A DNA stretch of 64,000 nucleotides from a phage: NCBI GenBank assembly GCA_025823825.1, contig GCA_025823825.1_4720.1; one strand, given 5' to 3'. The position numbers and the translations under genes are program-made. The notes below the pieces were generated by a model. The model did not search any database. It was not told the origin of the DNA and saw only the letters and a program-made list of their open reading frames with translations. Each line of letters begins with the position of its first letter. The first letter of the stretch is position 1. Positions 10,195-57,117 of the stretch are shown here, in pieces.

Positions 10195-10305
10195 AGTGTT
10201 GTCCTATACTGCGATGATTGAGATATCGGATGCCGGATGTGTGTTGCCATCAGGTGGTACGTACAGAAACACCCACAGATAAAACAGTAGCTTCTCTAAC
10301 TTCAA

Positions 10306-10971
10306 TTAAATTGAAGTTAGATATTGTTTACCTCCAACAAACGACGTTAACCAATTACCTGAAACAAGTTGCGATGCCCAGCCAGGCACTGCCCTACCGT
10401 TCTGGCTCATCACGTTACCTGCCCATCCCGGAAAACCCGGTCGGAAAATATATACTTGAATATGTGTTAAAGCGTTATCATTACCACTGCCAACAGCAAC
10501 GTTACGACTCCCAGATGACGGGAAATATTCTTTTAAGAACAGAGGATCGGTTGCTAATAAAGATGCGGGCCAAGGGTTCGCGGATGCATCAACATCGAAT
10601 TCGGTCCATCGCCATTTACGTCCCGTGTCGAACCATGTCGATGTACCACCACCCCTCACGGCAAGATTGCGCGCATCACGGACATTATAAATTGATTCGA
10701 TGTTACGCCATCCACCTTTTGCAGCGTTTGCTGCATAGCAAACCGCATTACCACCATTCTTCTTCTCGTAAACGGTTCGTTTGATATGAACACGGTCGAT
10801 GAACGCTTCACCGTATTTGTTGACGAGCGTTTGTGCGATATCACGAAGATCGTGCATGTGAAAAGCGATGTCTTCGTTATGGAACCATGTTGTCTGGTTC
10901 CAGACGGTACCGTTTGGTTCGGCACACATCGATCGGATATTGTTGCGTTGATTAATCGCGATAAAACCCAT
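10306..10971 (-). CDS. hypothetical protein, paralogue of 9553..10194
   Basis: Shared C-terminal block; start set at ATG 10971 (MGFIAINQ...) just after a terminator hairpin and T-rich tract. Confidence 0.55.
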   Translation of the reverse strand: MGFIAINQRNNIRSMCAEPNGTVWNQTTWFHNEDIAFHMHDLRDIAQTLVNKYGEAFIDRVHIKRTVYEKKNGGNAVCYAANAAKGGWRNIESIYNVRDARNLAVRGGGTSTWFDTGRKWRWTEFDVDASANPWPASLLATDPLFLKEYFPSSGSRNVAVGSGNDNALTHIQVYIFRPGFPGWAGNVMSQNGRAVPGWASQLVSGNWLTSFVGGKQYLTSI

Positions 10972-11571: not shown

Positions 11572-11619
11572 TAGATTTCCTTATGTGTTAACGGAAGTGA
11601 CTTCCATAAGGATTGATGA

Positions 11620-12009
11620 TTACTTTTTGAGCGCTTTAAGTTCTTCTTCCAACGCTTCCACTTTTGCCGTAAGCTTCTGTACTTGTTTGATTAATGGAAC
11701 CACCAAACGTTCGTACATAACACCTTCAGCGACGAGTCCGTTAGAAGAAACGATAGCGGGGTCATCTTCTTCGGTTGCATCACGCCAGTGCACGTACTGC
11801 GGTGCGATCTCACCAACCTCTTCAGCAATCAACCCATACCAACCCCAATCCTTGTTGTCTGCTTCACATGTGGAACGATACCAAACAGGACGCATCTCCA
11901 ATACTTTATCCGCTTGTTCATCCGTGATATTCTCGATATCTTTCTTATAGCGACGCGACGACGTTGAACGAAACACATTGTTGATCCCAGAAACAGGACT
12001 GATATACAT
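11620..12009 (-). CDS. S74-type intramolecular chaperone domain protein (free-standing)
   Basis: SRRYKKDIENI...WYGLIAEEVGEIAPQYV...VMYERLVVPLIKQVQKLTAKVEALEEELKALKK matches the layout of the C-terminal chaperone domain of endosialidase-type fibres. Confidence 0.6.
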   Translation of the reverse strand: MYISPVSGINNVFRSTSSRRYKKDIENITDEQADKVLEMRPVWYRSTCEADNKDWGWYGLIAEEVGEIAPQYVHWRDATEEDDPAIVSSNGLVAEGVMYERLVVPLIKQVQKLTAKVEALEEELKALKK

Positions 12010-12058
12010 GTTAGCCCCGCTGGTTGTAGTGCTAATGTCCCATACCGCAAATCCGCCG

Positions 12059-15000
12059 TTACTCCCATTTTTTTACGATCAATGTGTTGGCAATAATGTC
12101 CAGGTTATTGTCGTAACCGGTTAATTGTCTTTCCGTTACATAACTGGATAGATTGACCGAGTAGTTCTTACTGTTATAACAACGACGCCATCCTGGGCTG
12201 TTGGTACTGCCATTATAGTTGTCGTAGCTATAAATGAACTCGGAGTTGGTTTTCGCACCACTGACGGAAGACGTGGTTGCGGTCGTAACACGGATGGTAT
12301 AGTTTGTCATCCCGAAGCTAACGACCTCGATAACAGCACCAGCCAGAGGGATAATACCGCACTTGGTTTCACTGTCTGGGATGTATGCGCTGTCGGCAGC
12401 TGCGAAGGAGCAACGTGCGACCCAGGCGCGGGTATTGAATGCACCTTGGTTTTGCAACAACGTGATAAACGATGAGGTCGTAATCGAGCTGTTATTATCA
12501 CCGGTGATCAACCAGCCGGTCGGGCATGCGGTTGCGCCAACGTTTTTCGCTGTTAACGTGATGTTCTGCGATCCGTCGAAGGCTACGCCACTGATAGTGC
12601 GCGCAGTCTGCAGTTTCGTCGCCGTTGCTGCGTTCCCTGATGTGTTCTGGTTCCCTGCGGCGTTAACACCCGGCAGATTGATATTCGCACTACCGTCGAA
12701 AGACACCCCACCAATGGTGCGGGCGGTTTTCAGTTTTGTCGCCGTGGCGGCATTACCGGTCGTGTCTTGGTTACCGGTGGTGTTTACCCCAGGTAGGTTG
12801 ATATTGGCCGTTCCGTTAAATGAAACACCACCAATCGTCCGTGCCGTTTGCAACTTCGTTGCGGATGCCGCATTCCCCGTGGTGTTTTGGTTACCTGTTG
12901 TATTCACACCTGGGATACTATCCTTAGATGTGTAGATCTGTGCCCATTCCGACCAGTTCGCATCTGATGCATCACGACGCGAACGTAGGTAAGCTGGAGC
13001 GTGTGCGCCTGAAGTACCTGACCATCCAATAAGGATCTCACCTTCACCTACTGCGGTTGCTCCTTTAAGATGAACAACGTTACCGTAGGCTGTAGGGTAT
13101 CCGTTATTGTACGCTTCATACATCTGGATGCCCGTATTGCTGCCCTGGGTCGCATTAGCTAAAGCGGTGACTCGTCCCATGGAAGCGAGCACGTTAATGC
13201 TAAAGCTAATATCAGTTGTACCATCAAAGGCGACCCCATTAATCTTCCGTGCTGTTTGGAGTTTCGTGGCAGTAGCCGCATTACCAGAGGTACTCTGATT
13301 ACCTGCTTTGTTCACGCCTGGTAAATCAATGTTGGCGGTTCCATCAAAGGACACACCCCCTATGGTTCTCGCCGTCTGAAGTTTTGTTGCTGAACCGGCG
13401 TTTCCGGAAGTGCTTTGATTACCCGCCGCGTTAACACCCGGTAGGTTAATGCTAGCAGAACCATCAAAAGAAACACCACCGATTGTGACAGCCGTTTTCA
13501 ATTTCGTGGCTGTCGCAGCGTTACCCGTTGTATTCTGATTGCCAGCTGCATTGACGCCAGGTAATGCGATATCAGCTGTGCCATCGAACGCGACACCGCC
13601 TATTTTACGGGCGGTTTGTAGCTTGGTTGCTGTAGCGGCATTACCGCTGGTATTTTGCGTACCGGCTTTATTTACACCGGGAAGATCGATGTTAGCAGAA
13701 CCGTCGAAGCTGACGCCACCTATTGTTCTTGCGGTAGCGAGTTTAGTTGCTGTGGTTGCAGCATTACCAGCCTTTAACCATTCGCCCCATGGGCCATCCA
13801 CGCCGTTCCATGAAGCTGTTAAACTACGTACGTAAATATTTCCTGTACGTACGGTGTAACGCTGTGTTCCACCGAATTGCCCAGCTGGGAGCACTTCGAT
13901 GTAACCTACTGCGTTTGCTTCAGGGAAATTGTGGGCAGCATCAGCATTCGTTGACGTTTGTTTGGACCAAATACCCACAGACGCTTCAACCGGACCGTAG
14001 GTATTTAGATTCGCATCGGTGGGAAGCTGTCCTCGGAAACGTCGGAATAATGAAGCTGTTAACCCCAACGTTGTTTGCATCCCTTCAATGCTTGACTGCG
14101 ATAAAAGCGCCCGAGCTGTCGACGTGATAGCCGCTAAAGCAACCTTATCCGTACCGGTAAAATACGGGAATTTGTTTGCTGAAGTTGCTAAACCTGAAAG
14201 GGCGGTCAGTAATGCGTTAAGGGGTTGTTTCCCAGCCAGCGCGTTAGTTACTGTTGTTGCGAAATTAGGGTCGTTGCCTAAAGCTTGAGCCAGCTCATTA
14301 AGCGTATTTAGCGCTTCTGGCGACGAGTCGATCAGTGATGCGATAGCACGCATCACAAATTCCGTGTTGGCGATCTGTTGACTGCTATCGTTATCTGCAG
14401 CCGTAGGTGCTGCTGGGATACCGGTGAACACAGGGTTATTAAGATCTGCCTTGAGAGCGATGAGACGTCTAAGCGCTTCGACATCGACTTTCAGGTTTTC
14501 CCATCCGACGAGATAACCATCACCGGTTGTATGATAACGGTTGTACCAAAAATCACCATTGACACCGAAATAGAATATTCCTTTCTCTTCGTATTGTGGG
14601 CCGGAACTGTTCCGTGATGAGCTAATGTATTTTATTTCGATAAGGCCGTCGAATACCACTCCTGGGATGATTTTATTATTTCCAGCTGGCTGTGATACTT
14701 GGTACATCCCCGGGGTTGCGGCTTTAACCCACGTTAAGAATTCTGTTACTCCGGCGCTACCACTGAAATTCTTAACGTCGGTAAGTATCGCCCCATAACC
14801 GAACATACCGGGTAGAGCAACTCGTCCGCTGGTACGGTCACGAATATTTGATGCGACGACAGGCAGCTGTTTACGAACATTGTTAACCGCCTTAGGTGTG
14901 GCCGATTTTGTCTCGTCATCGCTATCGATGGCGTTGCTCAGGATGGTCAGTCCTCGAGTATTTGTGGTCGCATCAGGAAGAAACGCGTTATCCAACACCT

Positions 15001-15424: not shown

Positions 15425-15952
15425 TTATCCCGGGTAAATAGTGATGGTGTCACCAACGATAGTTGTAGCACCGGCGTAAAGATACGCTGGTGATGCCTCA
15501 CGTTGGTTTGTCACGATAAGATCCAGTCTCCCACGCCAAACCACGGAGGTATTCGCGATGGGAATCGAGATCTTCTTGGAAGTATCGTCACGAAAATTAA
15601 TGGCGGTAGCAAGGGTAACTGAATCAAAATCAACGTCGGGTTCAAAGTTGAATCCGTATTGATCTGAAATAGCTTGAATAACCGCTCTTATGGTTGTTGT
15701 TTCAACCGACTCCAAAACGATTTTTATCGGTATTCCTAGAAATGCTTTCGCGATATCACGTCGTGTGTAAGTGATAAAACTTTCACCACACCACCTTGTT
15801 CCTTCATTTGCTGTGACGATCACTTTTGCCCTGTTAGCACCAGAACTCCCATCCAGGGTTAAAGTGAGATCGGAGTTGCTGAATACACTACCGTTACGTT
15901 GGTTTATCAACGTAATAAGTTCGTCTTTCCATGGTGGGTAAAGTGAACGCAT
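15425..15952 (-). CDS. fibre adaptor module protein (shared N-terminal module only, ~175 aa)
   Basis: Start ATG 15952 (MRSLYPPWKDELITLINQRN) with GGAGGAGG 8 nt upstream; TAA is in frame with and 6 nt upstream of the fibre ATG. Confidence 0.55.
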   Translation of the reverse strand: MRSLYPPWKDELITLINQRNGSVFSNSDLTLTLDGSSGANRAKVIVTANEGTRWCGESFITYTRRDIAKAFLGIPIKIVLESVETTTIRAVIQAISDQYGFNFEPDVDFDSVTLATAINFRDDTSKKISIPIANTSVVWRGRLDLIVTNQREASPAYLYAGATTIVGDTITIYPG

Positions 15953-15992
15953 ATGCGCACCCTCCTCCAATAATCAAATTAAAATGCAAAAC

Positions 15993-16020
15993 GCCTCGAA
16001 ACCAGGGTGCGATTCGAGGC
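15993..16020 (-). terminator. intrinsic terminator (GCCTCGAA...TTCGAGGC plus T-rich tail)
   Basis: 8-bp stem, 12-nt loop, followed on the minus strand by GTTTTGCATTTTAATTT. Confidence 0.55.
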
Positions 16021-16063
16021 AAACGTAAACAGTCTTAACGACCGCATAAAATTCCGCGCATAT

Positions 16064-16084
16064 TACCCCCCCCCCTCGACGAAG
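16064..16084 (-). repeat. C10 homopolymer with flank TA-C10-TCGACGAAG (copy 1)
   Basis: Ten C at 16066-16075; same flanks as the C11 tract at 34212-34222. Confidence 0.7.
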
Positions 16085-16107
16085 CGAGGTAGAGGAGGAT
16101 AACACGA

Positions 16108-17862
16108 TTATGCTGCTACATACCCAGGCCAACGTTCTCTTGGCCAGTTTGTTGCGCCCTGTCCAACGTTGTCCTTACCAGAAGTTACATTACTTACATC
16201 CCAACCACTAAGATCCTGGTTAAATGCGGTGTTGTTACGCATCATGAGGTCGATATTACGTAATGATTGGGTATTCCAGCCGGAAATGTCTTGGTTGAAT
16301 GCCGTGTTGTAAGCAAACATGTTAACAACGTTTTGTAATTTTGAAGTGTTCCAGCCGCTAATATCGCCATTGAACTGCATGTTCGAGAACATACTGCTAG
16401 CATCGATAAGACTATCTGTTTTCCAGTTAACCAGCTTGTTCTCATCAAGTGCGTTGCAACTACTGAACATGTAACTCATGTTGTTAACTTTGGATACATC
16501 CCATTTATCTAACCCGTTACCAACGAACTCGTAACAAGCTTGGAACATCCAGCTCATGTCGGTAACCTGGCACACATTCCATTTGCTAAAGTCGAGGTTG
16601 AGTTTTGCGCATCCGGAGAAAGTTTTATACATACTGGTGATACGACTAACATCCCATTCTTGAATGTTAGGATCATTAAGTATAGATAAGAATTGGAACA
16701 ATCCGTCTAACGACGTCCATTTCTCTGGAATACGGTTTGGTACTGTACGGAGCGATGAAAGGTTATTGGTTGACGGAGAGCGGAACATACCGTTATCCCA
16801 ATTTACGATTTCCGTAATGTTGTACCCACGGATCGTTTGGCGTCCATTACCATTATACACAGACCCTGTTGCAGTTATTGTATATTCGTTTGTATCAGCA
16901 TACGTATATTCAGCCTGTGTAGGCCACTCACCTATTACATCCCTATTCCCATCACCCCAGTCAATGGAAATATCTATCCAACCATCAAGATCTAGGGTAA
17001 CGGTCCCGCCATTGGTCTTCAGGATGTATTTACCTGCATTGTCGGTATAATAACAAACAATCATCGCACCGTACAGGTTACCAATTTGCCAATCATCCTT
17101 TTGAGTTACCGCGATTTGTGCTGTACCACGCTGTAAGAAAAGTACCGTACGGTTCTCGTCAGTCTGTAGTGCGGTTAGTGCTTGAGTCTTATCATCGTCG
17201 GTAATTTCACCGGCTTCCATTAAAGCACTTAACATTCTTTCGAAGTACTCGATAGGCAACTGAGGTCCTACCGACATATCAACTGATGGAACAGTGAGAT
17301 CATCCAATGCTGCTGCCGTTGCGAGGACTAATGATCCCTTGGCGGTGTCTGTTTCTTGGAGGTAACGCAGTCCCGTAATCTGGTACGCTTGAATGATTGT
17401 AATCAGATCCAGTGTATCGTTAATGACCTGTACTTGTAAATGTCCAGACCAAACATAGCTGCTTTCAGCAATCGGTAATTCGACCGACTGAATACCCGAC
17501 GTTTCAAAACTGATCTTCTTATTAAGATCGGCTTCCAGGAAATCAACAGCTAGGTCGAAATTTATACCGTACTTCTCAGCGATGGAATCTACAATGTTCC
17601 TGAAAGCAACATCGGTACTTACGATGAAACGTAACGGGATCCCGGTGAACGCGTTGGCAATATCTCGACGAACATACGTGAGCGACTGCTCGAAGAAATA
17701 AGGACTGTTATCTCCAGGTTTGATGGTTACCTGGCATACTTCAGGATGTTCAGCTGGAATGAAAGATTCGAATTTAACGTCGGTTTCCTTCAACGATAGC
17801 ATGTTCTTCCGGTTTACCAACGCCAGAAGATCAGCTTTCCACCCAGGATAAACTGTAGACAT
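16108..17862 (-). CDS. tail fibre-like protein with shared N-terminal module and C-terminal BspA-like (DUF285-type) repeats
   Basis: Start ATG 17862 (MSTVYPGWKADLLALVNRKN) with GGAG upstream; C-terminal repeats WDVSxVxxMxxMFxxxxxFNQDISGWN. Confidence 0.65.
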   Translation of the reverse strand: MSTVYPGWKADLLALVNRKNMLSLKETDVKFESFIPAEHPEVCQVTIKPGDNSPYFFEQSLTYVRRDIANAFTGIPLRFIVSTDVAFRNIVDSIAEKYGINFDLAVDFLEADLNKKISFETSGIQSVELPIAESSYVWSGHLQVQVINDTLDLITIIQAYQITGLRYLQETDTAKGSLVLATAAALDDLTVPSVDMSVGPQLPIEYFERMLSALMEAGEITDDDKTQALTALQTDENRTVLFLQRGTAQIAVTQKDDWQIGNLYGAMIVCYYTDNAGKYILKTNGGTVTLDLDGWIDISIDWGDGNRDVIGEWPTQAEYTYADTNEYTITATGSVYNGNGRQTIRGYNITEIVNWDNGMFRSPSTNNLSSLRTVPNRIPEKWTSLDGLFQFLSILNDPNIQEWDVSRITSMYKTFSGCAKLNLDFSKWNVCQVTDMSWMFQACYEFVGNGLDKWDVSKVNNMSYMFSSCNALDENKLVNWKTDSLIDASSMFSNMQFNGDISGWNTSKLQNVVNMFAYNTAFNQDISGWNTQSLRNIDLMMRNNTAFNQDLSGWDVSNVTSGKDNVGQGATNWPRERWPGYVAA

Positions 17863-18088
17863 AAGCACTCCAATCATGGGGGCGAACGCCCCCCATCAGT
17901 TAAATGATCGTTTACGTCGCGTAAGGGTAATATAATTGCTGTGAGCCATATCAGAAGTTCACAACATTCTGAATCATAAGGTTACGTCGTTGGAAACAAA
18001 CCGATACAGATTCTTCATAGAACATTGAGATGATGGAAACCTAATTCGTACCATGAAAGCCGCAATAAAAAAAAGAAAAATAGGAAAA

Positions 18089-33619: not shown

Positions 33620-33878
33620 TTACGCCAGGCGGTACCACAATACCGGTACGAATCACAGCAGCAACTTCCTGCATGCCCTTACCCTTCAACGCATAGGTTT
33701 CATGTACCACATTACGTCGAGTCGTTAATCCAACAAATTTACATACAACCATGTTGTTTTCTGAAAGATAAGCGGTGTCGAGTTCACCGTGCAACAATTC
33801 TTTTTCTTTGGTATCAATACCTAATAACGCAATTTGATAAGCAGAAAGTTTCCAATAACGCATAATCGTCCTATTCAT
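33570..33878 (-). CDS. hypothetical protein (102 aa)
   Basis: Minus-strand ORF overlapping both neighbours; start uncertain. Confidence 0.35.
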   Translation of the reverse strand: MNRTIMRYWKLSAYQIALLGIDTKEKELLHGELDTAYLSENNMVVCKFVGLTTRRNVVHETYALKGKGMQEVAAVIRTGIVVPPGVSDNLDEVLHGTRKTAR

Positions 33879-34698
33879 AAACTATCAAATATTCTGAAAC
33901 CAAGTTTCTTGTTTCTACTTTTGCCGAAATCGTTCTTCGTACAGTTACAGGGTACAATTTTGTCGCCGAACTATAAATCTCTTCAGTCAACGCACAAGCA
34001 CTGTTGCTAATGATTGTAGGAATTCCCCGCGAGCGCAAGTTGTCAGCCTTTTCTGCAAGATAACGATGATCGTCTAATGTAAACCCCTCTTGAGTATAGC
34101 CCGTAAACGATGCGGTGGGGGAAATGGGAATATAAGGAGGGTCGCAATAAACGACGTCACCCGGAACCACCTTTTCAAGATGCTTCTGGAACCCACCACT
34201 TACAATTTCTACCCCCCCCCCCTCGACGAAGGCAGCCTGAAGATGGTTCGCTGCCAGACGCAATTCCTGTTTCGGGAAATAGACGGTCTTATACCGCCCA
34301 TGCGCAACATTAAATAAACCATCACGATTATAACGACATAAGCCATTGAAACCGTAACGGTTTAAATACATGAAGCAAACTGCGCGTTCCCACGGATCTT
34401 CAGCGCGGTTAAAACGTTCACGTATCTCGTAGTAGCTTCTGACGTCGGTAGGATCCGTTTGAAAAAGACGTTCCACTTCTTCGATGAAAGATTCTGGACG
34501 CGCTAGCAACGCAGACCATACTGAGAGAATATCCTCATTCGCATCACCTATCGAATACGCTGGGTACTTAAGAGCAAGCGTAACAGCGCCGGAACCAACG
34601 AATGGTTCAACAAGACGCTTTCCTTTAGGTAACACTTTTTCAATCTCAGGGATAAGCCTGGTTTTGTTCCCAAGCCATTTAAGAAATGTTCTGCTCAT
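33871..34698 (-). CDS. dam: Dam-type DNA N6-adenine methyltransferase
   Basis: N-terminal FLKWLGNKTRL and EPFVGSGAV, catalytic motif VVYCDPPY, NRYGFNGLCRYN block; contains a G11 run encoding EGGGV. Confidence 0.85.
   Translation of the reverse strand: MSRTFLKWLGNKTRLIPEIEKVLPKGKRLVEPFVGSGAVTLALKYPAYSIGDANEDILSVWSALLARPESFIEEVERLFQTDPTDVRSYYEIRERFNRAEDPWERAVCFMYLNRYGFNGLCRYNRDGLFNVAHGRYKTVYFPKQELRLAANHLQAAFVEGGGVEIVSGGFQKHLEKVVPGDVVYCDPPYIPISPTASFTGYTQEGFTLDDHRYLAEKADNLRSRGIPTIISNSACALTEEIYSSATKLYPVTVRRTISAKVETRNLVSEYLIVYE
34210..34231 (-). repeat. C11 homopolymer with flank TA-C11-TCGACGAAG (copy 2), inside dam
   Basis: Eleven C at 34212-34222 on plus strand, G11 on the dam coding strand. 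Confidence 0.7.
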
Positions 34699-35113
34699 CG
34701 ATTGGCGTTCCGATAATGTTGATGACTATTTCCGTTCGAACCGGATTGGTCAGTACGGCCTGCATGCGTTCAAGCATTGTTGGGTTATCCGTAACCACCA
34801 CATCGGCGTAACACAACGGATGACTTTCGAATGCTTCGGTGTCACTTACTAACAGAACACCCATCACATTTACGTATTGCGGTATGCGTCCACGGATGCG
34901 TTGCCACATGTCTTGAGTAAGGTCTTCGTTTTCTAATGCCACCACGATGACAGGGCTGATATTTACCGGGAAACGCGGATGCACCGTGCGGCGAAAGGTC
35001 ACCCAGCTTTCGACGTGGGATAATGCAAGTTCGAGAGAACAGCACTTTGGAGAAATCTGTATGTTTATTTGCTGAATCAATGAAAGGGGGTTTTGTACAG
35101 TCGCTTCAGCCAT
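34679..35113 (-). CDS. hypothetical protein (144 aa)
   Basis: Minus-strand ORF; no motif recognised. Confidence 0.45.
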   Translation of the reverse strand: MAEATVQNPLSLIQQINIQISPKCCSLELALSHVESWVTFRRTVHPRFPVNISPVIVVALENEDLTQDMWQRIRGRIPQYVNVMGVLLVSDTEAFESHPLCYADVVVTDNPTMLERMQAVLTNPVRTEIVINIIGTPIDEQNIS

Positions 35114-38976: not shown

Positions 38977-39604
38977 TGATACCTTCTATTAGTTGTACAG
39001 CAACTTCTTTTTCGGTGCTATAAAAGAACTTGCGGTGGAACTGAACAAGAAGCTTTTCGAATTTACATTGAACGATCTTTTTGCGTTCGATATGACCCAG
39101 GGAGAGCAAAGCACCCATGCAACGTACCGCTTGTTCGAGAACTTGTTTCGCGGTATCGTGATCGTCCGGTAACGGTAAATCTTCCTCATCGTCTTTAGCG
39201 ATAAGGCGTCTGATGATGTTATCGATACGTATCTCATCACCGTTAATAAAAGCCCCCTTCTCCCAGTCATCGAATCGTTGATGGATTCGACGTTGTAAGT
39301 TGGCTCTGTCTTCCATTAACTCTTTCAACTGGCTTTCTAAGTGGGATACGGTACGGCGGTCGGTTTCAGTGAAGTTTTCCGATTCTTTGTACCACCAATC
39401 ATTACGCGATAGTAAATCGTTAACGCGCGAAATCGTCCGACGACACTCACTAACAAGCCCATCACCATTCGGTAGCTCCGTGCCGAAATAGCATTTGTAT
39501 TTATAACGCATAACACGGATTAAACGTTTCGCTAGAAAACCTTGCCTTTCCAGTTTCTTCTTCAGTTGTGTGTATTTCTCTTCTTTTGTTTCCATTAATT
39601 CCAT
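38963..39604 (-). CDS. hypothetical protein (213 aa)
   Basis: Minus-strand ORF in AT-rich block. Confidence 0.45.
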   Translation of the reverse strand: MELMETKEEKYTQLKKKLERQGFLAKRLIRVMRYKYKCYFGTELPNGDGLVSECRRTISRVNDLLSRNDWWYKESENFTETDRRTVSHLESQLKELMEDRANLQRRIHQRFDDWEKGAFINGDEIRIDNIIRRLIAKDDEEDLPLPDDHDTAKQVLEQAVRCMGALLSLGHIERKKIVQCKFEKLLVQFHRKFFYSTEKEVAVQLIEGINEVK

Positions 39605-39993
39605 GATGTTGTACCTCGTTCAGCAATCAGGAGAGTCGTGGTTGTGCTTTTCACTAATCTATTAAAGTCTTGATATATCCGCCTGAGGGATGGTTTCAAA
39701 TCACAATAACGGCTGAAATAAACCTTCAAGTCATCTTTTGTCACAGTCTCCGTATTTATTTTCGTAGAAACACCGAGATCGATAAACTCTTTTCTTAATT
39801 GGGATAATTCATCAAGAAGTCGATGGTGGCTTAGATAAATAACAGATTTATCGGATAACAACTCGCCGGTTATCCGGCTCTGGCGTTCATCGAAATATTG
39901 GAGCCGCCATTCAATTCGCTTACGTAATTTATCAAGTAAATCAACAAAAGCGGTATAGCTGTTAACGGCTAGGTTAACTTGACTCGTTATCAT
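39595..39993 (-). CDS. hypothetical protein (132 aa)
   Basis: Minus-strand ORF in AT-rich block. Confidence 0.4.
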   Translation of the reverse strand: MITSQVNLAVNSYTAFVDLLDKLRKRIEWRLQYFDERQSRITGELLSDKSVIYLSHHRLLDELSQLRKEFIDLGVSTKINTETVTKDDLKVYFSRYCDLKPSLRRIYQDFNRLVKSTTTTLLIAERGTTSWN

Positions 39994-42485: not shown

Positions 42486-42558
42486 CGTTTCTCACCTCGT
42501 CGTAAAAGTAAATAGAGTTTTGTCGAGACGCCCTAATTACATACAACGTCGGTTATCC

Positions 42559-43539
42559 TCAGTAACAGTTATAATGGGTTCCAAGCCGCTCCGGTTTTCT
42601 CAGAAGACTATCTTTAAGCGGTACGACGTCGATATCAACGTTTTCTGAATAATAACCATTAGAACTACCATACCAACGAATAACAACACATCCTTTTGCT
42701 GTACGAATATGGTAAAATGTCCATCGCGTACGTTTGCAAAAGTCGTCATCCTCGTCTCTTTCCTCGGTTCTTTCTTCAGCGCTAAGTATCTTCTCACCAA
42801 TAATGTCGTTAAGATCGCCATCGATGTCTTCAAGGTACACTTTTTCACAGCAATCTTGCTTATGGCAGAATTCAACAACGTTCCCATCGCCCCGATAGAA
42901 AAGAAGGGCAATGCTGTATTGTAGCTGTTCGGCCGTTAAGTCTGTCGCGCAATACAAACTTTGATCTTCGGTTATCACCAAGACATTGTTGATTACGTGT
43001 CCGGCAAGCGCTCCGATCTTATTTACCGTGATAATCGGACGAACGGGTTCAGGTTGAACGATCGGAATACGAACACAACCAATTAAGGCCATCCGTCCTT
43101 TCTTTGGTCTAACCGCAAGGTAAGGTGATTTTCTTGGGTGGTTATGCAGACGTATTTCTAATTCGTCAAATTTAATCCCGTATATACCTAAGAAACGATC
43201 GAACAACCGATGAAACTCATCTGTTGCTTCTTTCAACGTTATGGTGTCTACCGTGAGTTTATGTCCCCTGAACACCCGGGTTATATCGATAACGTCGAGT
43301 GTTTTAAAATGTATTTCCGTAAGGGGGTGATTTGTATTTTCCAGGTATGTAATGGTTCTTTGAACCGCGATTTTAGGTGACGCACCTTTAAAACGTTTCA
43401 GGTATTTAACACGATAGCGTGTATGATCTGATGTTAACATTTTAATCTCCTCTCCCGACTTCAGAGAATTCTTAAAATCCGTTAGTTTTGATAGATGAGG
43501 TAAGACGGCATAAAAGCCTCCCGTAATGGGAGGCTTCAT
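42559..43539 (-). CDS. hypothetical protein (326 aa)
   Basis: Minus-strand ORF. Confidence 0.5.
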   Translation of the reverse strand: MKPPITGGFYAVLPHLSKLTDFKNSLKSGEEIKMLTSDHTRYRVKYLKRFKGASPKIAVQRTITYLENTNHPLTEIHFKTLDVIDITRVFRGHKLTVDTITLKEATDEFHRLFDRFLGIYGIKFDELEIRLHNHPRKSPYLAVRPKKGRMALIGCVRIPIVQPEPVRPIITVNKIGALAGHVINNVLVITEDQSLYCATDLTAEQLQYSIALLFYRGDGNVVEFCHKQDCCEKVYLEDIDGDLNDIIGEKILSAEERTEERDEDDDFCKRTRWTFYHIRTAKGCVVIRWYGSSNGYYSENVDIDVVPLKDSLLRKPERLGTHYNCY

Positions 43540-55647: not shown

Positions 55648-57102
55648 ATGAAACTCAAACAAAGCTGGAAAGACGAACTTCTCGCGTTAGTAAACAACAA
55701 AAACAGTTTACAGCTGACATTAGACGACGTAAAATTTGAACTAACTGAACCGGTAAGCGAAGTGCCCGGAACAGTCGTCGTTACGATCAAACCGAACGAT
55801 GATAGCCGTTACTTTAACGAGCAGTCTCTGACCTACATCCGTCGAGACATCGCTAAAAACTTCACCGGGATCCCGTTACGTGTTATCGTTAAAAATGATA
55901 CCGTCGTAAGGGATATCATCAATACGATTGCTGAACGTTACGGATTGGTATTTGACACAACCGTTGACTTCCTCGAATCAGAGCTGAATAAGCAGATTAC
56001 GTTCGAAGACACCGGTATTAAAGACATTACGGTTCCGGTTGCAAACACGTCTTATGTTTGGGCTGGTAATCTTCAGTTCAATATCGCTAACGATACGTTA
56101 AGCTTGATTACGATCATCAAGGAAACCAATCTTACGAATCTGGTTTATCTGGATGGCGTTGAAGCTGACACAACCGGATCGTTATTATTAGCAACGGCCT
56201 CGATTATCGACGATAACGGAAATACCGAAACAACTGAAGGTGTCCTTGATGCCGAGTACTTCCAGAATGTCCTGAATGTCATGGTTCGTTATGGTGATAT
56301 TACCAGCGAACAAATGCAACAAGCAATGCAGACAATTAACCAAAACGAAGACGTTCGTGAAGTGGAGGTTAAGTCATACGGCGACTCTGAGCTGTTGGTA
56401 ACCACAAAGAAAGATTGGGCTATCGGTAACCTTAAGGGCGCTATGGCAGTTGTTCGCAACGCTCAACCGAAACCAATTCAGTACATTCTCAAAACGAATG
56501 GCGGCTCCGTTACACTAGCATTGGACGGTTGGACAAATATTTCCATCGATTGGGGTGATGGGAATAAAGCAACATTACCAGGCGGACAAACTCGCGGATT
56601 CCACGAATACAGTGACGGTACAGAACGTACGATTGTAGCTACTGGTGTCCTCTCAAACCCTGAAGCACCAACACAGACACAAACCATCAGCGGCGATAAC
56701 ATCACTGAAATCGTTGACTGGAACAACGGATTACCGCAGGCTGTACAATTAACGGGATTAACCAGTTTGATTAAGGTTCCCGATTATATCCCGTCATACT
56801 GGACAACGTTGGAAAGTTTGTTCGAGAGCTGCTCATCGATAAACGACGTAAACATCACGAAATGGAATACCGGTAACGTCACATCAATGAAGAATTTGTT
56901 CTTTGGCTGTAACGTCTTCAACCAACCGATCATCGTATGGGATGTTACCCATGTAACAAATATCGACAATATGTTCTCGGGATGTTCGGCGTTCAACCAG
57001 GATCTAAGGATGTGGTCATTCCCAGCGGATACTTCCCGCAACAACTACGATAACGGTGCTACAGCCTGGCGGTCAGAGTATCGTCCAAGCTTCGATTTGT
57101 AA
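55648..57102 (+). CDS. tail fibre-like protein with shared N-terminal module and C-terminal BspA-like repeats (remote, opposite-strand paralogue)
   Basis: N-terminus MKLKQSWKDELLALVNNKNSLQLTLDDVKF... paralogous to 16108..17862; C-terminal ...VFNQPIIVWDVTHVTNIDNMFSGCSAFNQDL. Confidence 0.65.
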   Translation: MKLKQSWKDELLALVNNKNSLQLTLDDVKFELTEPVSEVPGTVVVTIKPNDDSRYFNEQSLTYIRRDIAKNFTGIPLRVIVKNDTVVRDIINTIAERYGLVFDTTVDFLESELNKQITFEDTGIKDITVPVANTSYVWAGNLQFNIANDTLSLITIIKETNLTNLVYLDGVEADTTGSLLLATASIIDDNGNTETTEGVLDAEYFQNVLNVMVRYGDITSEQMQQAMQTINQNEDVREVEVKSYGDSELLVTTKKDWAIGNLKGAMAVVRNAQPKPIQYILKTNGGSVTLALDGWTNISIDWGDGNKATLPGGQTRGFHEYSDGTERTIVATGVLSNPEAPTQTQTISGDNITEIVDWNNGLPQAVQLTGLTSLIKVPDYIPSYWTTLESLFESCSSINDVNITKWNTGNVTSMKNLFFGCNVFNQPIIVWDVTHVTNIDNMFSGCSAFNQDLRMWSFPADTSRNNYDNGATAWRSEYRPSFDL

Positions 57103-57117
57103 AAAAAAAAAAAAAAA
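57101..57117 (+). repeat. A17 homopolymer starting within the stop codon of 55648..57102
   Basis: Seventeen consecutive A; reads as T17 on the minus strand directly after the stem-loop. Confidence 0.8.

Follow-up and report, generated by a model that had tools for sequence, protein, structure and literature searches.

The stretch of phage DNA that was analyzed here in full, 64,000 nucleotides long and referred to as the window, is collinear from position 1 to 64000 with positions 87561-153478 of phage Goslar (MK327938) at 86-97% identity, with only a few module differences interrupting the alignment. Judged by this collinearity, it belongs to a relative of that nucleus-forming jumbo coliphage. 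For E. coli, the Goslar-like phages serve as the model of nucleus-forming jumbo phages, and in these chimalliviruses replication is thought to occur inside a protein shell that excludes host proteins. Two of the module differences are relevant to the features described below: a swapped fibre module (16120-18025), in which a 584-aa DUF7941/DUF285 gene takes the place of Goslar gp92-93, and an insertion carrying dam (33863-34714), which comprises 851 bp where Goslar has 34 bp. More insertions or replacements relative to Goslar were found at 10246-10968, 11608-12537, 39593-39990 and 42558-43451; among these are two inserts of ~0.7-0.9 kb and a replacement of the tail-fibre tip together with its assembly-protein region.

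Near-complete Goslar-like genomes (contigs of 199-240 kb) were recovered from NCBI isolate assemblies labelled as E. coli (including O157), Salmonella enterica and Shigella flexneri (loci L023-L025, L033, L039 and L041; proteins P0155 and P0169-P0176), which suggests that cultured isolates carry this lytic jumbo phage or are contaminated with it, and that its hosts are not limited to E. coli. In one relative (L031, 664-2790) the thymidylate synthase is split into parts of 249 and 99 aa by a gene for a GIY-YIG/NUMOD3/I-TevI-like homing endonuclease, an arrangement that resembles the T4 td intron, while the copy in the window is unbroken.

The feature that drew attention to this DNA is a pair of homopolymers. 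The runs C10 (16066-16075) and C11 (34212-34222), both on the plus strand, had been singled out in an earlier note as the only C/G runs of at least 10 nucleotides, and they are the only ones even when the threshold is lowered to 7. For this sequence, an iid model predicts 0.04 C/G runs of 10 or more, and a first-order Markov model 0.014. As the note had also observed, both runs are embedded in the same context, TA on the left and TCGACGAAG on the right, giving TA-C10-TCGACGAAG at 16064..16084 (copy 1) and TA-C11-TCGACGAAG at 34210..34231 (copy 2), direct repeats on the same strand that are 18 kb apart. The identity ends sharply, 2 nt to the left (TA) and 9 nt to the right (TCGACGAAG) of the run, and given the two runs, the chance of 11 identical flanking bases is ~2e-7. 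The 9-mer TCGACGAAG occurs at four sites in the window against 0.85 expected; the additional sites (28613 and 51201) were considered as members of a hairpin family and rejected, as they lack a G/C run and are unrelated. The longest homopolymer of the window is of another kind, an A17 at 57101-57117 that begins within the TAA stop codon of the ORF at 55648..57102 (plus strand), in a convergent intergenic region where it adjoins a hairpin, CTTCCTCCC...GGGGAGGAAG; read on the minus strand, the run is a T17 that follows this hairpin at ~14 nt. The two C/G runs themselves are functionally different elements that share a patch of 21-22 nt, and they are described in turn below.

Copy 2 is located within dam (33871..34698, minus strand), an intact ORF in which, as the earlier note correctly stated, the bases of the patch encode FVEGGGV. 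The 275-aa product is a D12-class N6-adenine DNA methyltransferase: it matches Pfam PF02086 over the full length of the profile (positions 1-253 of 253, E = 2.3e-60), aligns over its full length with E. coli Dam (2G1P/4GOL; 1e-68), and shares with the E. coli enzyme the AdoMet-binding motif FxGxG (residue 31) and the catalytic motif DPPY (residue 186), the latter downstream of the G11 tract. On the basis of the similarity to E. coli Dam and DpnM the protein is predicted to methylate GATC. It differs from E. coli Dam by a 7-aa Gly-rich insertion (the VEGGGVE region) at the tract, and E. coli dam is without a homopolymer. The idea that the shared motif represents a clade-specific Dam insertion, which came from a MAFFT alignment, was dropped, as an HMMER alignment sets the 7-aa gap elsewhere. 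Avoidance of GATC was likewise rejected as a mark of dam status, considering that the site is equally under-represented in the window (0.68, dam-plus) and in Goslar (0.65, dam-less).

All close homologues of this Dam occur in Goslar-like contigs and at the same position, and the gene is missing from Goslar and from IMG/VR UViG_3300011560. The DNA of the cassette is 100% identical in many genomes, whereas the 1.5-kb flanks are just 92-96% identical (loci L023-L041), and the 3' third of the window allele (~582-798) is set apart from every other allele by a common set of sites. In combination with the presence or absence of the gene, these data indicate recent recombinational spread and mosaicism of the cassette. 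The intervals that contain the mosaic breakpoints are 319-432, 440-512 and 415-582, with the tract at 477-487; a role of the tract as recombination hotspot was not retained, as these intervals are 70-170 nt wide and one of them excludes the tract.

Within dam, the G11 tract (34212..34222, minus strand) covers codons 159-163 (E-G-G-G-V). The homopolymer arose by synonymous GGA-to-GGG changes, and the VEGGGVE peptide is found in all dam alleles. When other tract lengths were simulated on the window allele, G11 was the only one in frame (275 aa), and the products were shortened to 173 aa (G9), 162 aa (G10), 174 aa (G12) or 163 aa (G13), so that DPPY was lost in every out-of-frame case. Exactly these lengths, G9 to G13, and a number of interrupted forms were observed among the relatives, as read from assemblies that are mostly based on short reads, in which poly-G is error-prone. 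In-frame tracts included G11 in L009, G6-A-G4 in L011 and L012, GGGAGGAGGGG in L007, L008 and L010, and a G9 within another codon context in L013 (77% identical), and a frameshifted G6-A-G5 was present in L005 and L006. To this set we added loci that were fetched via the neighbouring 97-aa protein and therefore carry no bias towards an intact dam. These contained G11 in frame (L034, L035 and L041), G12 with the 174-aa product (L033, L037 and L039), G10 with a 162-aa product plus a 99-aa fragment (L038), and the interrupted in-frame forms G5-A-G5 (L040) and G4-AA-G5 (L036); the contig of L042 starts 4 nt ahead of the tract.

The length differences stand out against otherwise identical sequence. 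The dam genes of L033 and L039 differ from that of the window by one extra G and 0 mismatches, and over 5294 bp these two G12 loci differ from the G11 loci L024, L025 and L027 by only 1-2 mismatches and the indel. Since L037 and L038 are found on clearly other backgrounds, at least three independent length events must be assumed. Among the contigs that encode exactly the N-terminus of the window protein, 5 had an intact gene, 7 had G12, 7 had G10 and 4 had G13; G9 occurs in another dam allele. Every truncated Dam within the 90%-identity protein clusters breaks at the tract, with tails that fit the simulated G9, G10, G12 and G13 products. Some additional cases relate to the assemblies: P0173-P0176, which are 'partial' proteins in NCBI assemblies of Salmonella and Shigella, have the tract as their beginning or end, which marks breaks in the contigs, and the contigs of P0166, P0167 and P0188 end in messy G-rich sequence at the same point. 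The breaks in L042 and P0173-P0176 are at most suggestive of an elevated mutation rate at the tract. Two Dam copies (P0186 and P0189) carry other lesions. Goslar-like contigs of ~238 kb were found in isolate assemblies of E. coli O157, Salmonella and Shigella as well as in numerous metagenomes, some of them with dam ON and others with dam OFF.

We are highly confident that the length of the dam tract is polymorphic between natural genomes, as far as this can be judged from assembled sequences. The repeat is located in the reading frame, its length toggles the product between intact and truncated, and it varies among near-identical genomes. The G11 run therefore appears to be a slipped-strand frameshift switch, i.e. 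a contingency locus with ON and OFF states, and we prefer this classification because there is a single variable site in genes that are otherwise identical, because changes of both +1 and -1 occur, and because some lineages are locked ON. In this respect the suggestion of a slipped-strand switch in the earlier note holds for copy 2, where natural lengths range from G9 to G13 and the frameshifts map exactly to the tract. That the switching is put to adaptive use is proposed with moderate confidence. In such a mechanism G11 would yield full-length Dam and the other lengths of the window allele products without DPPY, and polymerase slippage during phage replication would keep populations mixed for GATC methylation. 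Mixed methylation could then act as a hedge between defences that cut unmethylated DNA and those that cut methylated DNA. Slippage might be aided by the fact that nucleus-forming phages replicate away from host mismatch repair, and the interrupted in-frame tracts would lock the ON state in some lineages.

The polymorphism could also reflect the decay of a dispensable and recently acquired gene, with the homopolymer merely as its weakest point and no selection for bet-hedging, an explanation that we consider rather unlikely. It is consistent with the complete lack of dam in Goslar and UViG_3300011560, with the excess of OFF over ON contigs for the allele of the window, which would fit relaxed selection, with the frameshift of L005 and L006 in an interrupted and less reversible tract, and with the other lesions in P0186 and P0189. 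Decay is harder to reconcile with the 100% identity that frameshifted copies otherwise show to intact ones, meaning that the changes are recent and focused on one site, and with the 100% conservation of the intact protein across genomes with flanks that differ by 5-8%. In addition, several lineages fixed in-frame interruptions that stabilize the ON state, and the synonymous origin of the homopolymer also argues against decay. That the lengths are artefacts of poly-G sequencing or assembly, and dam is constitutively intact, seems very improbable. Short-read chemistry is indeed error-prone at G runs of 10 or more, and the messy G-rich contig ends at the tract (P0166, P0167, P0188 and L042) are a case in point. 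Nevertheless, the lengths other than G11 recur in independent assemblies and pipelines (NCBI isolates, ENA and Logan) with 4-7 contigs each, G12 is common to two near-clonal isolates whose relatives have G11, and the frameshift in L005 and L006 sits in an interrupted tract, which is much less prone to error.

Copy 1 has a different setting. It is located between two minus-strand genes, the upstream 584-aa gene of the swapped fibre module (16108..17862, stop codon at 16108-16110), which has DUF7941 and DUF285 domains and is fibre-like or receptor-binding-like, and the downstream 175-aa gene (15425..15952), which has a DUF7941 domain and is a homologue of Goslar gp91. The 584-aa gene is disrupted in L114 (591-2345), where it is called as two ORFs of 169 and 412 aa. 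The earlier description of copy 1 as intergenic is true in so far as it lies between genes, but the run is really part of a conserved RNA element. On the minus strand the G10 tract (16066..16075) forms most of the 3' arm of a hairpin (16059..16106, core 16066-16098) that consists of the 5' arm CCUCCUCUACCUCG, the loop CUUCGU and the 3' arm CGA-G10. A second hairpin (15993..16020, minus strand), GCCUCGAA...UUCGAGGC followed by GUUUUGCAUUUU, is terminator-like and located just upstream of the ribosome-binding site of the next gene.

The site was gathered from ~40 relatives, using as anchors a 25-mer that adjoins copy 1 and is identical between the window and Goslar, and homologues of the downstream 175-aa protein, for which an exact look-up of the window's own version gave no record. 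In all of these relatives an inverted repeat opens 2-5 nt past the upstream stop codon. L017 and L022 possess a perfect 12-bp stem, and where other alleles have mismatches, the minus (sense) strand forms G.U pairs. The stability is strand-specific: for the window a folding energy of -27.1 kcal/mol (z -3.6) was obtained for the minus strand versus -12.2 kcal/mol (z -1.2) for the plus strand, and the Goslar hairpin folds at -25.5 kcal/mol. When 17 distinct alleles were aligned with the loop as anchor, 93.7% of the cells were paired, compared to 57-68% in slid controls, and two stem pairs were altered on both sides (U-A/C-G and C-G/U-A, via U.G), giving a covariation score that was matched by 2 of 500 shuffles. 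Considering both the strand-specific stability and the base-pair covariation, we conclude with high confidence that copy 1 is the 3' arm of a conserved sense-strand RNA hairpin.

A search of the region 15850-16250 on both strands with the Rfam covariance models gave no match up to E = 10, and a scan for rho-independent terminators did not call the hairpin, which has no U-run and is followed by UAAUAUGCGCGG. Intrinsic terminators and 3' stabilizer hairpins are likewise GC-rich stem-loops directly past a stop codon on the sense strand, but the copy-1 stem differs from intrinsic terminators by the lack of a U-run, and a separate hairpin with a U-rich tail is located 45 nt further on. The hairpin would act as a 3'-end, stability or processing element ahead of the TATG-containing segment described below. 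A G-run can pair with both the C and the U of the pyrimidine arm and therefore the homopolymer keeps the stem, and the gain or loss of one G in the arm would have little effect. The peptide that the earlier note read in frame past the upstream stop codon (stop-SCYPPLPRFVEGGG-stop) is correct as a translation. Read-through of the stop into a 14-codon extension was nevertheless rejected, as the extension is unconserved and its frame and length shift between G10 and G11 and between hairpin alleles.

The 25-mer (16040..16064, minus strand; sense AATATGCGCGGAATTTTATGCGGTC) adjoins the hairpin on its 3' side, is unique in the window and contains two TATG motifs. With 24 of its 25 columns invariant in 32 distinct relatives, it is far more conserved than the neighbouring genes. 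TATG is the core of the phiKZ late promoters (PMC4666361), and by this analogy the motifs might be taken as a late-promoter-like element, which we mention as a lead only. When the whole intergenic region (15953-16106, minus strand) was folded, a stability of -62.6 kcal/mol (z -3.9) with a diffuse ensemble was obtained, in which the pyrimidine arm CCUCCUCU (anti-Shine-Dalgarno-like) pairs with the downstream Shine-Dalgarno sequence GGAGGAGGG and not with the G-run; this pairing could be a trivial purine/pyrimidine complementarity.

The homopolymer is the exception among the hairpins. At the site orthologous to copy 1 Goslar has GCCCCTCTACCCCGACAAAG, which is of equal length and without homopolymer. 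The allele with the run, here named W (CCUCCUCUACCUCG-CUUCGU-CGA-G10/11), was found in only five of the ~40 relatives when the window is counted, the others being L018, L020, L113 and L115 (contigs ERZ1026852 NODE_3, JACXXQ010000003.1, ERZ27280832 k141_421332 and ERZ27280798 k141_13782). Since all lineages, those of dam-less phages such as Goslar among them, have the ordinary hairpin, W must be the derived form. Its run measures G10 in the window and L018, and G11 in L020, L113 and L115. A comparison over 2.2 kb showed 5 differences between the window and the near-clonal L113, one of them being G10 versus G11; therefore the run in the hairpin slips as well. The switch that had been suggested for copy 1 is thereby reduced to slippage as such, as the sequence is non-coding and has no ON or OFF state. 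W is nearly invariant on backgrounds that have diverged by 9-13%, and L113 and L115 encode a downstream protein that is identical to that of loci with an ordinary hairpin. These observations together imply that W is an old allele which moves by homologous recombination. It is not tied to the fibre module of the window, since L021 combines that module with an ordinary hairpin.

The search for the motif in relatives that the earlier note had proposed thus had a divided outcome: the motif is present in dam and hairpin loci, but most relatives lack it at one site at least. Exact searches gave 0 matches in IMG/VR and 4 in the GTDB genomes, all unrelated bacterial sequences, which means that the motif is no widespread element, and a megablast search with the copy-1 region returned no match in complete E. 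coli genomes or plasmids.

The allele closest to W, type C, reads CUUUGU-CGGGGUAGAGGGG(G)U. W differs from it by five substitutions within 13 nt, namely U-to-C in the loop and G-to-A, U-to-G and twice A-to-G in the stem, and all five yield the sequence of dam. The last three weaken the stem, as they introduce an A.G mismatch that is found only in W and turn two U-A pairs into U.G. The stem G-to-A change arose independently in L017 and L022, and in L137 the same arm underwent an independent expansion to G11, without a dam-like flank and with a lengthening of the arm.

What could account for the identical flanks? The best reading, to which we assign roughly even chances, is a short ectopic gene conversion or templated patch from dam to the hairpin. 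In this reading ectopic gene conversion, or template switching at pre-existing microhomology, would have transferred a copy of the dam stretch CTTCGTCGA-G11-TA to the hairpin arm, with the derived W allele as the result. The identity has sharp borders, the changes are clustered and match the putative donor, and more than 30 relatives with the ancestral state provide the polarity. The bases within dam are explained by descent, given that VEGGGVE is encoded by all dam alleles and the changes there are synonymous. The ancestral hairpin arm differs from dam by 7-8 mismatches in 24, equal to the best random matches in 85 kb. A common origin of the two ancestral sites was rejected on this ground, as the similarity does not exceed the best-in-genome chance level, but a resemblance of this size is proposed to be the sort of microhomology that an ectopic event would use. 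The gene-conversion patch was one of the possibilities raised in the earlier note; it is plausible and preferred as an account of the identical flanks, though unproven. Such a conversion would lead one to expect a TTCGTCGA-Gn allele of dam alongside the W hairpin. The state of both sites is known only for the window, for ERZ1026903 NODE_5 and for two dam-less genomes; the window combines W with the G11 dam and ERZ1026903 NODE_5 combines a type-C hairpin with an interrupted dam.

Independent convergence, in which slippage expansion, along with selection on the stem, gave rise to the G-run of the hairpin and the match of its flanks to dam is a coincidence, we consider rather unlikely. L137 demonstrates that the same arm can grow a G11 independently, L017 and L022 have the stem G-to-A change as well, and 16-17 of 24 positions of the ancestral arm already agreed with dam, a chance-level resemblance. 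However, the arm became longer in L137, whereas in W it is of ancestral length and the changes of U, A and A to G weaken three pairs; moreover, all five clustered differences are towards dam, with sharp borders of identity. The probability of the coincidence ranges from 1.6e-7 to 0.03, dependent on the null that is chosen. The most generous null leaves a single coincident change (loop T-to-C) with p ~0.03, and the less generous ones give 6.5e-4 to 1.6e-7. The earlier note called chance convergence of the motif unlikely, and the identity of the flanks given the two runs indeed exceeds what chance would give (~2e-7).

In a more far-reaching scenario the two runs would be a coupled slippage pair, in which recurrent templated exchange keeps the dam switch and the hairpin upstream of the tail-fibre genes alike. 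The length of the G-run in the hairpin would then tune the expression of the downstream receptor-binding genes, either by competition with the Shine-Dalgarno sequence GGAGGAGGG for the CCUCC arm or by altering the context of the TATG 25-mer. We consider this highly improbable; if true, a single sequence module would generate diversity in DNA modification as well as in host recognition, and would do so in a nucleus-forming phage that replicates beyond the reach of host mismatch repair. Least probable of all is a function of the shared 21-mer itself, as a protein-binding site or as a recombination site for module exchange or an 18-kb deletion, the latter being another proposal of the earlier note: both copies are located in or near DNA that differs from Goslar (copy 1 at 45 bp from the edge of the swapped fibre module and copy 2 inside the dam insertion) and two of the three breakpoint intervals in dam include the tract, but in most relatives one site or both are without the motif, the fibre module of the window is combined with an ordinary hairpin in L021, native flanks are present on both sides at all motif loci (~30 dam and 5 hairpin loci) with no junction between the two contexts, the intervening 18 kb includes the ligase and many conserved genes, and the motif is not in IMG/VR and gave just four unrelated matches in the genome collection.

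The combination of a dam switch, an RNA hairpin arm and a short copy from dam to the hairpin is the joint explanation that we consider reasonably probable for the whole of the data. A switching Dam would offer a handle on two questions: whether DNA methylation matters for a phage genome that is shielded by a shell, and how unstable simple repeats are away from host mismatch repair. As dam is ON in some of the circulating genomes and OFF in others, the tract should be checked when Goslar-like phages are typed or engineered. The probable copy of 21 nt from a gene to a hairpin is a small and clean candidate for microhomology-guided templated mutation in a phage.

Repeat-driven switching has been described for phages before, and what is distinctive is the setting of the dam tract. 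The closest parallel is formed by the A-run repeats in agt of phage T2, which are contingency loci (Gomez, Barrick and Waters 2025 preprint, PMC12633550) that hedge between defences directed at modified and at unmodified DNA, TgvAB and McrBC (PMC12633550). As in the dam tract, a mononucleotide repeat is located in a phage DNA-modification gene and slippage by one unit in either direction reversibly abolishes modification. The T2 repeat is an A9 in a glucosyltransferase gene, whereas the repeat described here is a G11 in the gene of a Dam methyltransferase of a nucleus-forming jumbo phage, and the dam tract is known from natural polymorphism between genomes. In Campylobacter Fletchervirus, G tracts of 7-11 in coding genes give rise to ON and OFF subpopulations (Sorensen et al. 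2021, Cell Rep 35:109214, as cited in PMC12633550 and PMC10877375). According to these accounts the tracts are found in receptor-binding protein genes and the host also uses polyG phase variation; compared with what is described there, the tract here lies in dam and the copy on the fibre side is non-coding. A polyG tract in a methylase gene was mentioned for the Bordetella phage BPP-1 (Liu et al. 2004, as cited in PMC12633550), where, going by that citation, it was only noted and not studied, and in a phage that is unrelated to the Goslar-like phages. Among bacteria, phase-variable DNA methyltransferases are classical, an example being ModM of Moraxella, which controls a phasevarion (PMC6902483). 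Phasevarions share with the phage dam the repeat-driven ON/OFF switching of an N6-adenine methyltransferase, but they involve chromosomal Type III mod genes that steer sets of host genes, whereas the phage enzyme is an orphan Dam of a lytic phage. The setting is further distinguished by the fact that this orphan Dam is itself present in some and absent from other Goslar-like phages.
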